A stretch of 19,364 nt of DNA, taken from Thermoproteota archaeon. Lineage in GTDB: Archaea > Korarchaeota > Korarchaeia > Korarchaeales > Korarchaeaceae. The position numbers were made by a program. The stretch covers positions 1 through 19,364 of the forward strand of contig JAVCBY010000090.1 in NCBI GenBank assembly GCA_037917625.1, in the 5' to 3' direction. Below, one piece after another: positions 12,001 through 18,000 of this stretch; within the stretch, counting starts at the first letter, position 1, and every line of letters starts with the position of its first letter.

Positions 12001-15000
12001 CTACCTCCTCAGACATCCTCAGGACCTCATCCAAGGATCCCAATTGGGATGGCTTGCCCGTGGTCTCAGGTCCGAGCTCCAAATCTATTCCCAGAGATCT
12101 AAATTCCTCTCTAACTCTCCTTAATGATTCTATAGCTGCCTTAAGGGCATCCTCCTCACTCATCTTCCCATAATACCCTGGATGGAATGTGATATGACCA
12201 GCGCCCATTTTGCTCGCAGCTACTCCGGAATCTATTAACCTCTTGATGCTAGCCTCTCCCTTCTCCTTGGAGCAGAGGTTTATCGCATACGGGGCATGTA
12301 AGGAGAGCATTATATCGTTTTCAGAGGCTTCCCTCCTCACCCAAGAGAGTAGATCCTCATTTTTCGGTATAGCCCTCACAGCTTGATACTCCATGGCATC
12401 GAGACCTATCTCCCTCAGGTAAGAGAAGGCCCTCTCCTTGGAAGCATCGAGCGGATAGCCGGCGGGTCCGAACCTAACTCTATCGATTAGCACGAGCATT
12501 CCAGTGACGCTCAAAAGATAAAGGTTCCTGAAGTGAGAGGGTTCACTCCAGGAGAATATCGATAAAACTCGCTTTATTATTATGTTTCGGTCAATAATGA
12601 ATATATTTTTTCATTTATATGAATTAAAAGTTGAAAATGTTAATAATATGATGGAGATGCTATTTTATGCGCAGCGAAAGGTATTTATCTCACATCATCC
12701 AGTAGATCATGGGTCACCCGGCTCGCTGCGGGCTTAGCCCCTTCGTGGGCTATCGTGACATAGTGCGGGGGAAGGGGCCCTACATTGGCCCCGATCATGG
12801 GCGTCCCAAAGGACGCCACCCCTCCGTACTTTGTGCCGGGTGACCCCACCTCCGCCTCCCTCGGTGGAGAGAATGTGGTTCCTGAGGCCGGATTGTATAA
12901 CAGCATTTGAGGAAAGGGAGATAAGGGATTCCATACCTCGCTATATAGATGTAGTTGAGGGCAGGAAATCCCCTCTCTTCAAGCTCTCGAAGATAATCAG
13001 GCTTGAGCCCTCGGATGACCTTTGGAAAACCCATGAGGAAGGATTGAAGATCCTCAGGGAAATTTTAGAGGGAGATGAGAACCCTAGGAGGGGCGAAGAT
13101 GGAATATCCCTCTTAGATGTTAAGGTATACTTATCCCTCGAGCTCGCAGGGAAATGCAGGTTCTGCGAGTGGAAATGCGGTGTCAACAGGATTGAGGGAG
13201 AATCTGGAGTGTGTAGAGTGAGGGAAACGAGAGTTTCGAGTGGCTTCATCCACATGGGGGAAGAACCTCCAGTGAGTCCATCGGGCACTATATTCTTCTC
13301 AGGCTGCAATTTCAAGTGTATATACTGTCAGAACTGGGACATATCTCAATTCCCCGAGTCGGGGAGGATAGTATCTCCTGAGAAACTAGCAGCTCTCATG
13401 GATGATCTCAGGAGGAGGGGCGCTAGGAACATAAACTTAGTCGGTGGGGAGCCGACTCCCAACATACATACGATATTGCTCTCCCTCAGATATGCTTCGG
13501 AGGACTTCCCCGTGATATGGAACTCCAATATGTACATGAGTGAGGAGGGCATGAAGCTCCTGCTCGGCATCGTAGATCTTTGGCTCCCTGATTTCAAGTA
13601 TTGGAAGGATGAATGCGCCAGGACCTTGAGCGGAATCCCCAGGTATTCGGAAGTCGTTAGGAGGAACTTATCCATGGCTTATGAATTCCCGCCCGGGGAG
13701 ATTATAGTGAGGCATCTAGTCTTACCTAATCATGTAGATTGTTGCACTAAGCCTATACTGAGCTGGATATCGAGGAACATACCGAGAGCCCTCGTGAACA
13801 TAATGGACCAATATAGGCCGGAGTACAGAGCGCATCAGGTACCTGGGATGAATAGGAGGGTCAGCTCGGATGAGATTAGGGAAGCTTTCGAATTCGCGGA
13901 TAGCCTTAAGCTTAGATGGAGGTCCGTCAGCCGGTGACTAGGGAAAGGAGCTTCCACTTGAGCTCCTCAAGGCATCCCTCATTTAGGAGGAAGTGATCCG
14001 CATAGGCAAGGGCATCTCCGAGGTGAAATGCCTCTATCTCCTCCCTATCCTCCCTCAAGAATTCCTCATGGCTCCTCTTATCGAAACCCTCCCTCCTCCT
14101 AAGGGACGTCCTGATGAACCTAATCCATCTAGAGGATAATATTGCTATGGTTATGACATCTTCCCCAAACTCTTTTTTGAATTCATCAATTTCTTCAATA
14201 TTTCTTATACCATTTACCACATAACATCGGGGGGGAGGGGATCCCTTAATGACTTCTATAGCTAGCTTAGCGATAACGCTAGCCCCCTTCTCCCTCCTTA
14301 ACTCAATGCCAACTGACCTTAAGCTCTCTCTGGTTTTACTTAGCCCCTTCCTCTCAACCTCCTCGATGAGCAAATCGCTCATCCTTATTACCCTATACCC
14401 TAGAGCTTCCTCAAGCGCTTTCGAAGCTTCATCCTTCCCGCTGCCGGGCAGTCCCACTATCAGTACGATCGGCTTACCCGGGCATCCTGAGCCCATAGAC
14501 CCACCTTGAACCCAATAGCTGATTCCCTTTTAATATGGAACATAAGTCAAGTTAGGGGAATAAATATGATCTCGATAATAGAAGTTGAAGCGACTAGTCA
14601 GGGGGACGGAGTGATACCTTTCACTGGACCCTTCTTCAGGGCCGCTGTGCTGAGATCGATATCCTCTCAGGATCCTCTGCTCGCGAAAGCCCTGGAGCTA
14701 TCCTCTAAAAAGATATTCGTTGAGGCACTCAGGAAGGAGAGGAAGCAGATGCCATGCGGTTCCTTGGAGGAGTCAGTTTACATTGGCTCGGAGTACAGAG
14801 GATCCATAATAATATTTAATGATAATGTGATAAGTGATGCGATAAAATCATGGATATTCAAGAAACCCACCATAACGATAAAGGATATTCCATTTAAAGT
14901 GACATCGTACATGCATCAAGAGATAAATATACTGGACTTCATACAAGAAAATCCATGCAGGAATTTCAGGCTCCGCTTCCTCACGCCCACGTGCTTCAAG

Positions 15001-18000
15001 AGGGCGACTTCTCAGTACTGCTACCTCTACCCAAATCCCAGGCTTATCGTCTCCTCTCTCGCTTCAGCTTGGAATGCTCTCTCACCTAAGAAAGGTCCGG
15101 AAACTAGATTAGCAGCTACTTGGGCCGATCTCAGCGTTGTAGAGACGGGATACGAATTATGCACGACTAAACCTGTGGAGATGAGCGGGGAGAAGACATT
15201 CGTCGGTTTCATGGGCTGGGTGAACTATAAGGTGATAGATCACCCCGAATGGCATAGATCGTCGCACGAGGAGATGGCTAAATGGCTAGCGACTTATCTG
15301 ATGTTCGGGGAACTGATAGGAGTAGGATATATGAGGAACATGGGGTTCGGAAGGATAAAGTTTGAGGTTAAGAGGAAGTAACAGTTAAACAATAGCCTCT
15401 AACAAACCCCTCTTTGCTCTCTCCATTAGCAGGATCCCGCTCCTTAACTCAATTGCCTTGTGGTCGCTAGCTCCGAATATCCTCTTGAGCTCCCAGAAGA
15501 CCCTCCAAGTGCTAGTAGCGTCCTTGCATGAGGAGATTGATACGGTTAAGCTTCCAGATTCCGGCCATGTGTGAACGGCGGCATGAGATTCCCCTATTAT
15601 CGCGATGCTCAGGACCCCTCCATTGGGTTTCCGCATCGTTATTATATCGAATAGCGTAAGCCCGGAATTAATGACGGATTCTATCAATGCACTCTCCACG
15701 AAAGCGATATCCTCGAGTAGATTTCTGCTGACGCCGAAAAGCTCACCAATCACATGGTACTCGAAGGCCCTCTCCATTTTTTACCTCACCTCCGCCTCCC
15801 TATACATAAAACGACTCATAATTTATTTAAAAAGATTACGAAGAGCTGCCTAATTGCCCTAAGTTTGAGGATAAGCTCTCAGAGATCCTAATTTTGCTGT
15901 CAGATCGGAAGTCAACCCGACTTTTTCCAGCTCTAAACTAATAAAAATCGCGAATTCAATATGATGGGATTTTCTGAGATTTATGTGGATCAAATAAGAT
16001 AAAATAAATAGAATCCCCCAGGAAGAATCTTCATTGAGCTCAGTTAACTGAGAAGGGTCCGGAGATCAACTCCTGATGACCAGTTGAATAGATCCCCCCC
16101 TTGTGGGGGGAGGGGGATTATATTAAGCTCCATCTCGAGTAGCTCGTAAGCTCTCCACTAAATGCATTATCCTCAGGGTCTGTCAGAAGAAGCCCTCTAG
16201 ACTCCCACTAAGGCTATACTCCTCACCCAATATTGTTCTAAGCATCCTCTTCAGGGTCTCACTCTTAACATCGATTTCGGGCTCCTCAGATATGCTCTTC
16301 CTCTTAGAGAGCCAATCATTTAATATCCTCTTCGAGTATTCCACCATCACATCCCTCCACCCAGCAGCATCCTCCAAATCCAATTCACGCTCTAAGGGAG
16401 CCCTTCCGAGCTCATTGTAGTACTCCTTACTTATGCCCTCCCCAGAGGAGCTCCTCTCGAAGGAGTAAAAGATCCAACCTAGGGAGATAAATTGTGAGAT
16501 CTCGGCATCCTCCCCCGAGAGGGAGAATTCATCCTGCCTGAAGCACACGAACTCATCTGCCCTGACGAGCTGATATATCTCATCGTAGAGAGGTTGAGCT
16601 TCCTCTTCCATCATTCTCACTGCTTCTAAGCTGAGGGAAAATCTCTTTCTGAATTCCTCGACAGACCAGCTTCCCAGGAGGATGCTTATCCTTCCGAATG
16701 CGTTGACGTTTCTATCCTTCAGGTATTCTGAAATTGATTCGAGAGCTAGCTTGATCTCCTCCTCCGATTTCTCACCTATAACTGAGGATCCTGGAAGATA
16801 ATTCAAGATTTCAGTCAGATCTTTGAAATTAGATACTTCAATATCCCTAATCCTAGCTAAAACTCTCTTGATTATCGCGGTAGATGAGAGGGGGTCCAGT
16901 AAGAGGGAGGGGTTTTGAGAGAAAGCTGAAGCGGCTGTTCCCCCAGCTATCCTCCCAAGCGTCCATAAGGAGTCTAAGACCCTCCATTCTCCCCCATCCT
17001 CTATCAAAATCATTGGGTTCAATCTACCGGATCTATTACTGCTCGGAGACGCCCTGTACTCCATCGAGAACCCGCATTTCACCTTCTTATTATCCACATT
17101 TAGATCCCTCAATAGTAAGAGCGAGAACCCCCCTCTGAGATCCAGCATCCATGGGGAATCCTCCCTTACGGCCTTTATGAGGTAATCAGCATAATGGTCC
17201 CTCTCAGATTTATATGTCATTTAACTCGAGGCACCTCCCCCCTGATATTGCAGTCAGAAGTATATAATCTCACCCGTTCATCCCCACCTCCAGTCATCAC
17301 GAGGCCCCTGTTCATCCTCAACATCTCCTTGAATATAGGCTCTAATGATGATATTGCCTCACTCCGATCATTTAAGTACGCGAACTCACCAGTAATAAAT
17401 CTAGTACTAGCAGTCCAGAGGAGCCTCAGAATATCTAATTGATGGAATCATTCATGACTGAAAGGCAAGCTATATGAGGATGGGAACATACCTCAGTGTA
17501 AATTCTAATAGTCGCGTAGATCCCTTAGATCGGCCCTTTATTAATTTCGCTTTGAACTTAATTTAGCTGACTGTCAGGTAGAATCAGTGCACATAATTTT
17601 GGAGCTTTCTTAAGCGAGTCAGGTATCATGAGTGAGTCAGCTGGAGAGCCTCGATGAGGAAAAGATTAATTAGGCTTCAACCTCCATCTCAAGGGGGATG
17701 AGATAGCCATCCCAGACTGATGGGGACGTATGATTCACCCAGGGGTAATCGACCCCCAATCTGATTAAAGCCCCTTTATAACATCTATCAAGTCGTCAGT
17801 CATCTTATCCGCTTGCTCCATCGTCACGATGAGGGGAGGCTCTATCCTCACTACGTTCCCGAAGATCCCTCCAGTCCCCATTATGTACCCTCTCTTGAAC
17901 ATCTCATTTCCTATCCTCTTAGTCGCCTCTGGATCTGGCTTCTTCCCTTCCTTCACGATCTCAACGCCTATGAAGAGACCCCTCCCCCTAACCTCACCTA

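Follow-up and report, generated by a model that had tools for sequence, protein, structure and literature searches.

As a rule, cas genes move between genomes and have a patchy distribution. The Cas6 proteins of Thermus thermophilus (Cas6A and Cas6B; 4c8y, 4c9d) and Streptococcus thermophilus (6fjw) share a double RRM fold, hairpin arginines, a Gly-rich loop and a dimer formed through the C-terminal domain. The signature of the family is a GhGxxxxxGhG loop in the C-terminal part that carries one or more Lys or Arg (PMC5965381). The H37A change costs TtCas6A about 17,000-fold, and the dimeric Sulfolobus Cas6 enzymes without a catalytic His (4ill, 3zfv) still cut, using Lys25/Lys28 to process repeats (PMC3902920). 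Vestergaard et al. (2014, PMC3973734) describe archaeal cas6 genes that are encoded away from cas cassettes and act in trans, as well as the host-encoded repeat-binding proteins Cbp1 and Cbp2, which are unlinked to cas loci and for which further cellular roles are supposed. CRISPR parts are also reused without arrays in HRAMP and in the Streptomyces I-E/STAND module, both multi-gene, defence-like modules (Koonin and Makarova 2022, PMC8730458), and domestication of CRISPR parts by hosts is a named open theme of the 2025 classification (PMC12669027).

The window analysed here (the whole stretch of DNA) is 19,364 nucleotides of a contig from the Korarchaeaceae, a family of archaea from hot springs. 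In contrast to those modules, its cas6 stands alone within a housekeeping block. The protein resembles the Thermus and Streptococcus enzymes in fold, hairpin arginines, Gly-rich loop and, as predicted, dimer (structural alignment to 4c9d: Z 22.6, rmsd 3.0, 244 aligned), but it lacks the His of the alpha1-beta2 loop, has an extra Cys/His set and a 226–234 loop, and is unlinked to cas genes or arrays. It shares with Sulfolobus Cas6 the missing active-site His and a dimer, here predicted; only one of the aligned basic residues is well kept (R25, 26/28 orthologues). Cbp1 and Cbp2 are, to our knowledge, unrelated proteins without the Cas6 fold. Compared with the separately encoded cas6 genes, the korarchaeal gene differs in occupying one fixed site throughout the family, in being kept where no CRISPR was found, and in standing beside the loci's own Cas6. 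The genes and signals of the locus are as follows.

14566..15381, + strand: stand-alone gene of the Cas6 family encoding 271 aa; it is monocistronic, and lies divergent to the kinase-like gene and convergent to the decarboxylase gene
13927..14496, − strand: P-loop kinase-like gene whose best match, PRK08356, scores under the cut-off; divergent neighbour of cas6 in 30/30 loci
15385..15777, − strand: gene of the S-adenosylmethionine decarboxylase family (71.7 bits to TIGR03330, cut-off 75.65), next to cas6 and convergent with it in 23/30 loci
12873..13937, + strand: radical SAM gene with a structured leader
14528..14535, + strand: TATA-like box TTTTAATA, about 30 nt 5′ of the cas6 start codon
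14554..14559, + strand: purine-rich ribosome-binding site AGGGGA, from the sequence of upstream regions

The gene is real and is a Cas6 by profile and fold. The earlier note had placed it at 14563..15381; the intact reading frame and its end were confirmed, but 14563 is an AAT codon and the start is the ATG at 14566, which the AGGGGA at 14554..14559 supports. Because the start lies one codon later, the earlier residue numbers were one too high, and C65/C144/C153/C200 become C64/C143/C152/C199. An AT-rich box was seen by eye at a similar site upstream of the remaining g1 loci. The assignment to Cas6 held: the 271-aa protein scored 73.3 bits against TIGR01877 (curated cut-off 58.65) and matched the PADLOC Cas6 profile (E 8.9e-27), and PF10040 (precomputed) was present on 8/8 hits. 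The monomer model (pLDDT 89) has the duplicated RRM (ferredoxin-like) fold; its top Foldseek match was Sulfolobus Cas6 4ill (E 3e-17), and the top rows of Foldseek and VIA-align were all Cas6, at full length.

Identical neighbours had been reported at every locus. This was true of the kinase-like gene (labelled UPF0200 in the earlier note) in 30/30 loci, but the decarboxylase was missing in 7/30 (four cut by contig ends, three absent, all genus g5), and no decarboxylase orthologue was found in 4/4 g5 genomes. Synteny is a property of the entire block rather than of cas6 alone. The window holds no other cas gene, mini-array or repeat end; cas6 is in no operon with Cas5/Cas7 homologues and nucleases, its neighbours being the kinase, decarboxylase and radical SAM genes, and an Rfam scan of the window returned only a tRNA.

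An orthologue (E ≤ 1.2e-57) was found in 32/36 Korarchaeaceae genomes and 5/5 genera, as previously counted, and its reading frame was open in all 32 matches; Cas1 was again found in 18/36. Among the 20 near-complete genomes, the stand-alone Cas6 was present in 20/20, Cas1 in 11/20, RAMP genes in 10/20 and DevR in 8/20. The four genomes without the orthologue also lacked the kinase and decarboxylase orthologues, so that no true loss was seen. The stand-alone clade was monophyletic (support 100), as was each genus, in a tree made by a quick search without bootstrap that took in 13/28 orthologues. Identity between G007 and G030 was 43% for the stand-alone Cas6 and 79% for the locus Cas6. No orthologue was found beyond the family, in agreement with the earlier note: across 1.84 billion representatives, profile matches fell from E ≤ 6e-100 to 1e-36, and the best match in five other-family genomes was only 2e-30. 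A stand-alone, His-bearing Cas6 in G039 has a different setting and fell outside the orthologue clade in the tree; the nearest relatives in sister families (G037, G040, G041) adjoin cas genes. The main splits of the family are dated to 1.3–1.5 billion years or more (PMC12787533). Our literature search, which mostly did not extend to subscription journals, found nothing on the stand-alone cas6 or on the structured RNA described below; Table S1 or Fig. S3 of PMC3973734 may list the gene.

No Cas1, DevR/Cas7 or RAMP match was obtained in eight orthologue-bearing genomes (G006, G008, G011, G016, G020, G027, G031 and G034), the number found before. In G006, G008, G020 and G034, neither an array nor any cas gene other than the stand-alone cas6 was found; in the window, the gene is not linked to cas genes. 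G006, a 91% complete genome in 4 contigs, was read from end to end: it showed no array, whatever the repeat, 33 family Cas queries matched nothing except this gene, and the two intergenic RTTGAAAS sites were not repeat-like by eye. The genomes without cas genes are all incomplete bins (90–99%), and their loss of CRISPR may be recent. The distribution, the tree, the counts of second Cas6 genes given below and the reading of G006 together support vertical, single-copy, CRISPR-independent retention well.

Purifying selection on the gene is strong rather than extreme. Values of dN/dS were 0.016–0.047 in 16/18 computable pairs, and in 11/11 of those that take in a genome without cas genes; two g2 pairs gave 0.095 and 0.144. 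The earlier claim of extreme selection is upheld within genera only, conservation between genera being below the proteome median. Between G000 and G007, dN/dS of the stand-alone Cas6 was the second lowest among 13 block genes and was under that of all 8 cas-locus genes. Similarly, the gene was more conserved than its neighbours within g1 (87% vs. 67–81%, to G024) but not between genera, where its identity was 38–43% and that of the kinase, decarboxylase and radical SAM genes 44–66%. For 445 reciprocal best hits between G000 and G006, the median identity was 48% and the lower quartile 39%, close to the between-genera range of the stand-alone Cas6.

Three findings are new here: the canonical His is absent from 28/28 orthologues, the hairpin-binding residues are kept, and invariant residues crowd the predicted dimer interface. 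The residues concerned are encoded as follows.

14695..14697, + strand: codon 44 (Glu), in the alignment column of the canonical catalytic His
14755..14757, + strand: invariant Cys64, at the predicted dimer interface, adjoining residue 197 of the partner chain
14998..15033, + strand: beta-hairpin 145–156, with K/R145 and R/K146 (aligned to TtCas6A Arg129/Arg130) and invariant Cys152
15139..15165, + strand: strand 192–200 (invariant E193, T194, G195, C199, T200), centre of the predicted homodimer interface
15241..15267, + strand: inserted loop 226–234 with invariant H226, P227, W229 and H234, from the alignment
15319..15351, + strand: Gly-rich loop GVGYMRNMGFG (252–262), the Cas6 signature, with R257 in 25/28

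The canonical His was present in 108/125 nearest outside relatives and in none of the orthologues, one of which has a His two residues further on; a TtCas6A-type His in the alpha1-beta2 loop is thus lacking. Since the relatives that surround the gene in the tree bear the His, its loss here looks independent of that in Sulfolobus. Two Cas6 types in the family's own cas loci are also without the His. Near the pocket, R25, K/R41 and R257 are kept. In a low-identity alignment to 3zfv, R25 is basic and the second Sulfolobus catalytic Lys falls on a non-basic position. A basic residue was kept at 145 in 25/28 and at 146 in 28/28 orthologues. The Gly-rich loop is present with its Arg in the window protein; a basic residue occurs there in 25/28 orthologues, and Lys/Arg is absent in the three aligned g5 orthologues.

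As the earlier note had reported, cysteines are invariant: C64, C152 and C199 in 28/28 orthologues, with C143 in 23/28. The new invariant Cys and His residues were not seen in 125 relatives, the mean number of Cys per protein was 4.8 vs. 2.3 in relatives, and the Cys199 column is Lys/Arg in 87/125 relatives. The predicted homodimer scored 0.70 (best control 0.01), above a mark reached by 20/30 solved homodimers and 1/23 single chains, and prediction runs had 96% or more of their contacts in common, with a pLDDT of 88 or higher; this pass may reflect likeness, because Cas6 dimers have already been solved. Invariant columns (40 in total) made up 11/23 of the positions within the interface, which was predicted from the same alignment, and 29/248 elsewhere. 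In helix 1 and the active-site loop, 3/28 columns were invariant.

We consider it probable that the protein is an exapted, dimeric RNA-binding protein acting outside immunity. The loss of the canonical His with retention of RNA-binding residues is a new argument for domestication, and the His loss suggests recruitment to bind a cellular RNA. The earlier proposal of a Cas6 domesticated for a housekeeping RNA role is upheld insofar as a non-immune role is the likeliest; the housekeeping RNA role itself is putative. The ancestor of the family would have captured a His-bearing, CRISPR-type Cas6, which became fixed in the housekeeping block as one monocistronic gene and has been inherited vertically since. 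The protein, most likely a homodimer as predicted, would use the retained beta-hairpin, the Gly-rich loop and the dimer groove to bind an RNA hairpin rich in G-C together with its flank. Cleavage would be weak or nil because the catalytic His is lost, and the dimer is probably locked, by disulfide or metal, through the Cys/His residues newly gained at the interface. The ligand would be a chromosomally encoded structured RNA rather than mobile CRISPR repeats, and the protein may serve in chaperoning or processing it or in regulating translation. If a whole family has fixed a lone Cas6 among its core genes, this would be a clean case of a host-domesticated CRISPR part.

A role for the protein as a CRISPR factor in trans is rather unlikely. 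It would then be a host-encoded, His-independent (Lys/Arg-type) backup nuclease for crRNA or a binder of the repeat end RTTGAAAG, and would let incoming cas modules without cas6 work at once. In its favour, His-less Cas6 enzymes are active (PMC3902920) and are present in the family's cas loci; separate cas6 genes and a Cas6 shared between systems are also known in archaea (PMC3973734). Every repeat type observed in the family has (A/G)TTGAAAG as its end, and the nearest sister-family relatives adjoin cas genes. Type I-A operons of G000, G007 and G030 have no cas6, but matching Cas6 types are present elsewhere in G007 and G030. G015 has type III RAMP genes with the stand-alone Cas6 only, and G000 has I-A and III-D modules with other Cas6 only as fragments; the source assembly and G015 both hold effector genes, and no intact Cas6 other than the stand-alone protein was found to accompany them. 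The C15 gene that had been taken for a cas6 beside a cas locus of the source genome is a 5′-truncated piece (residues 178–301), along with the last 28 codons of another copy on a 1,104-base contig, and no cas gene lies beside it. Against this role, a second Cas6 was found in 13/14 near-complete genomes with Cas1, DevR or RAMP genes. These further Cas6 genes go with particular repeat types: a PDLC01477-type locus Cas6 was present in 5/6 genomes where the 25-nt repeat was seen, directly 3′ of cas3'' in G024 and G028. Moreover, repeats vary in the family (24, 25 and 36–37 nt, with different stems) whereas the protein is nearly fixed within genera, the four genomes named above, in which neither array nor other cas gene was found, keep it, and the three aligned g5 orthologues lack Lys/Arg in the Gly-rich loop.

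Reuse of the fold for a task other than RNA, such as redox or metal sensing (C64/C152/C199/H226/H234), DNA binding or a protein scaffold, is improbable: the new invariant Cys/His residues, the raised Cys count and the change of a Lys/Arg column into Cys199 would fit it, but the protein has kept its Gly-rich loop and the hairpin residues that contact RNA, and the cysteines are more simply explained as disulfides that confer heat stability. It is scarcely credible that the gene was left stranded when a CRISPR locus decayed and has persisted as a relic only because the block around it is conserved. The between-genera identity near the lower quartile of shared genes is what a relic might show; dN/dS mostly below 0.05 contradicts it, as do the frame open in 32/32, the 40 invariant columns and the absence of any observed loss.

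A speculative candidate ligand for the putatively exapted Cas6 is encoded 1.7 kb upstream of cas6.

12711..12846, + strand: structured RNA core 5′ of the radical SAM gene, at the same site in all five genera
12847..12861, + strand: 3′ tail of the structured RNA, a complement of the ribosome-binding region of the decarboxylase gene, with which it co-varies
15787..15801, − strand: target of the tail, the ribosome-binding region of the decarboxylase mRNA, from co-variation

Pairing of the RNA tail with the decarboxylase ribosome-binding site is supported by sequence comparison. In the source assembly, 15787..15801 is the only complement of at least 14 nt to the leader beyond its own locus, and the tail (12–23 nt) and target co-varied in 17/19 loci. 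In several genomes the decarboxylase leader could not be told from control leaders by duplex energy alone, but it stood apart by helix length and co-variation. Genus g5 has no target and no tail, and its Cas6 has no loop Arg. The core was not seen ahead of the radical SAM gene in 3/3 outside genomes, and an RNA model (9 g1 and 1 g4 sequences), which misses g2, g3 and g5 copies seen by eye, had no match in other families. It is conceivable, if quite unlikely, that the Cas6 dimer supplies the protein component of a crRNA-like regulator domesticated by the host, in which it binds this RNA and perhaps frees it from its mRNA, and the tail pairs with the decarboxylase site; the link to Cas6 consists of proximity and shared distribution. 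If true, nature would here have made a programmable RNA regulator out of a Cas6. The other non-coding sequences common to G000 and G006 were only rRNA, tRNA, RNase P-like and small-gene matches. Replacement of RNase P by Cas6 was ruled out, RNase P RNA being present in 5/5 genomes tested. As a separate observation, Pop5 was found with one profile in 3/5 genomes.

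The stand-alone Cas6-family gene lies as follows:

14566-15381, + strand, lone Cas6 gene, 271 residues encoded

An earlier start at 14563 was not borne out: the codon there is AAT, and the ATG three bases downstream, which is preceded by a purine-rich site and a TATA-like box and has an equivalent in all 18 loci of genus g1, fits instead. Since the gene is divergent from a P-loop kinase-like gene and convergent with an S-adenosylmethionine decarboxylase-family gene, it is transcribed alone. Its product is Cas6 by family and fold, as the earlier note had proposed (TIGR01877, 73.3 bits, cut-off 58.65; PADLOC, E = 8.9e-27; Foldseek, E = 3e-17 to 4ill). 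The predicted structure (pLDDT 89) matched 4c9d over 244 aligned residues (Z = 22.6, rmsd 3.0). No paper on this gene was among those listed by literature searches; it was not found in passages of PMC12787533, PMC7145637 and PMC5294841, and for a Korarchaeum genome the places displayed in the PMC3973734 supplement show just I-A and adaptation cassettes.

One strong match per genome was confirmed in 32 of the 36 Korarchaeaceae genomes, including 20/20 near-complete genomes and all five genera (g1 to g5), with no stop codons in any of the 32. The remaining four genomes are 70-82% complete and also miss the orthologues of the kinase and the decarboxylase, so no loss of the lone gene is shown. Among the 20 near-complete genomes, profiles found Cas1 in 11, DevR/Cas7 in 8 and RAMP genes in 10, and the ATTGAAA array pattern occurred in 8. 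Neighbours claimed to be constant were so on one side: the kinase was upstream in 30/30 loci, but the decarboxylase was downstream in only 23/30 (four contig ends; three absences, all in g5). Because gene order is the same between genera throughout the surrounding block, synteny is evidence of vertical descent rather than of a functional link. Among 1.84 billion representatives, no orthologue was found outside the family, with the profile E-value going from 6e-100 to 1e-36. The best matches in the sister-family genomes G037, G040 and G041 adjoin cas genes. A quick tree was built from 74 proteins, among them 13 of the orthologues and 11 other Cas6 proteins of the family; the 13 grouped in a single clade (support 100), each genus together, and none of the 11 fell within it. 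A Cas6 that stands alone and has the His is encoded in the sister-family genome G039 (locus L098, 9442-10257), where the gene setting is different, among metabolic genes; its loop insertion, which contains a His, also occurs in the cas-linked relatives of G040/G041.

Selection, estimated by a simple codon count, had been called extreme. The dN/dS of the lone gene was 0.034-0.048 between the genome of the window (G000) and its six closest relatives. In the comparison with one relative, G007, it was second lowest among 13 block genes, and all eight cas-locus genes were higher (0.056-0.161). Of 20 further pairs, 18 were computable, 16 giving 0.016-0.047 and two g2 pairs 0.095 and 0.144; values were no higher in pairs including a genome without cas genes. 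Identity between genera was 38-43%, lower than for the neighbours. Among 445 reciprocal best hits from a G000-G006 comparison (median 48%), this is close to the lower quartile. Constraint is thus strong within genera but not extreme overall.

The column of the catalytic His holds His in 108/125 nearest full-length relatives and in 0/28 aligned orthologues, where it is variable (E, R, D, K). According to PMC3902920, the matching His37 of TtCas6A contributes a factor of about 17,000 to cleavage and of 70-90 to binding. Judged from this alignment, lone Cas6 is not a His-dependent enzyme. Sulfolobus Cas6 is likewise His-less, yet active, and the canonical His is missing as well from two Cas6 types encoded in the family's own cas loci:

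L069, 6932-7699, His-less locus Cas6
L066, 16918-17820, His-less locus Cas6

The L066 type carries a Cys-rich insertion in helix 1. The RNA-reading parts of lone Cas6 are retained: residues 145 and 146, aligned to Arg129 and Arg130 of TtCas6A, are Lys or Arg in 25/28 and 28/28 orthologues, and the Gly-rich loop is preserved, its Arg being present in 25/28. Compared with the 125 relatives, C64, W96, C152, C199, H226, P227, W229 and H234 are new and invariant. The homodimer prediction scored 0.70 (best control, 0.01), a mark reached by 20/30 solved homodimers and 1/23 single chains; because Cas6 dimers are already solved, this pass may reflect likeness to known structures. Runs agreed in at least 96% of contacts (pLDDT at least 88). 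Invariant columns made up 11/23 positions of the predicted interface (residues 64, 146-157, 189-200 and 213-226), 29/248 elsewhere and 3/28 in helix 1 plus the active-site loop, the interface prediction having been fed by the same alignment as these counts. In the predicted dimer, C64 and C199 both contact residue 197 of the opposite chain; these contacts point to a possible lock on the dimer, by a disulfide or a metal site.

We consider it most likely, with some reservation, that lone Cas6 was domesticated as a dimeric RNA-binding protein whose ligand lies outside immunity. That it is instead a CRISPR factor acting in trans seems less likely; G006, G008, G020 and G034 have the gene despite showing no Cas1, Cas2, DevR, RAMP or array, with only marginal Cas5 or HD scores. 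All genomes without cas genes are incomplete bins, and in one, G011, the sole CRISPR trace was an array of 11 repeats at the end of a contig. G006 (91% complete, four contigs) was scanned whole: no array of any repeat was found, and the sole match to 33 family Cas protein queries, which recovered the loci of G000, was the lone gene. Action in trans is favored by G015, where type III genes are present and lone Cas6 is the only Cas6 found, and by G000, whose I-A operon (contig C40) is without cas6; elsewhere it has only a 5′-truncated locus-type Cas6 and the last 28 codons of a second copy on the 1.1-kb contig C15 (L034), that copy probably being unassembled. Separately encoded cas6 genes are already known (PMC3973734, PMC5965381), and exaptation of whole modules is described in PMC8730458 and PMC12669027.

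The cas loci of the family carry their own Cas6. A second Cas6 match was present in 13/14 near-complete genomes with Cas1, DevR or RAMP genes (two weak, E about 0.001-0.01). The PDLC01477 type occurs in 7/36 family genomes and in 5/6 where a 25-nt repeat was seen (first arrays only); in G024 and G028 it is the gene directly after cas3'', and in G007, G026 and G030 it is displaced. Between G007 and G030, from different genera, it is 79% identical, versus 43% for lone Cas6; thus, the locus gene moves and the lone gene does not.

A candidate ligand, tied to lone Cas6 solely by place and shared range, is a structured leader RNA; RNA, target and lone cas6 all lie inside 3.1 kb:

12711-12861, + strand, structured RNA core (12711-12846), then tail
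15787-15801, - strand, tail target, ribosome-binding region of the decarboxylase gene

The core has a folding z of -5.6. In each of the five genera, a similar structure precedes the radical SAM gene; it travels with that gene in G017 and was not found ahead of it in G037, G039 or G041. The tail can pair with the decarboxylase ribosome-binding region over 12-23 pairs, including G-U pairs as expected for RNA, in 17/19 loci with both (exceptions, G019 and G030); in terms of independent sequence states, the 17 amount to about five or six. Tail and target co-vary across g1, g2 and g3: Watson-Crick pairs numbered 12-21 within a clade (10 in G028) and 5-11 between clades; the G013 group and G017 are an exception, with 13-14 between them. 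G017 itself has 21, with RNA and target on separate contigs. In the G000 assembly, the target is the only complement of at least 14 nt beyond the RNA's own locus; in G006, further sites match the tail as well or better. In g5, no decarboxylase orthologue was found (4/4 genomes), the tail is missing and Cas6 is without the loop Arg. The leader RNA with its tail is likely a trans-acting antisense element, of interest regardless of the role of Cas6. It may act alone, without lone Cas6, which is unchanged in G019 although the pairing is absent there. In g1, another possible partner of the tail is the ribosome site of the radical SAM gene itself, over which it could fold.

Elsewhere in the window, a 345-aa protein (16183-17220, - strand) adjoins the decarboxylase and is conserved in four genera, with no match in NCBIfam or PADLOC. 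A tRNA gene (11550-11623, - strand) lies between PUA-domain and endonuclease IV-like genes, and at this site the G024 sequence is longer by about 1.3 kb. The Pop5 profile PF01900 had no match in the g1 genomes G007 and G024, where RNase P RNA is present; this may be divergence. In the I-A operons of G000, G007, G024 and G030, an unassigned frame of 171-202 codons, Cys-rich in G000 and without a PADLOC match, lies between cas8a and cas3':

L033, 6788-7303, - strand, cas8a-cas3' frame
L032, 2624-3208, + strand, cas8a-cas3' frame
L068, 12730-13335, cas8a-cas3' frame
L075, 9341-9928, cas8a-cas3' frame

Mini-arrays of one or two 25-nt repeats occur in G000 on contigs C49 (1782-2663) and C72 (65-154), one adjoining a type III-D module and one preceding a housekeeping gene.
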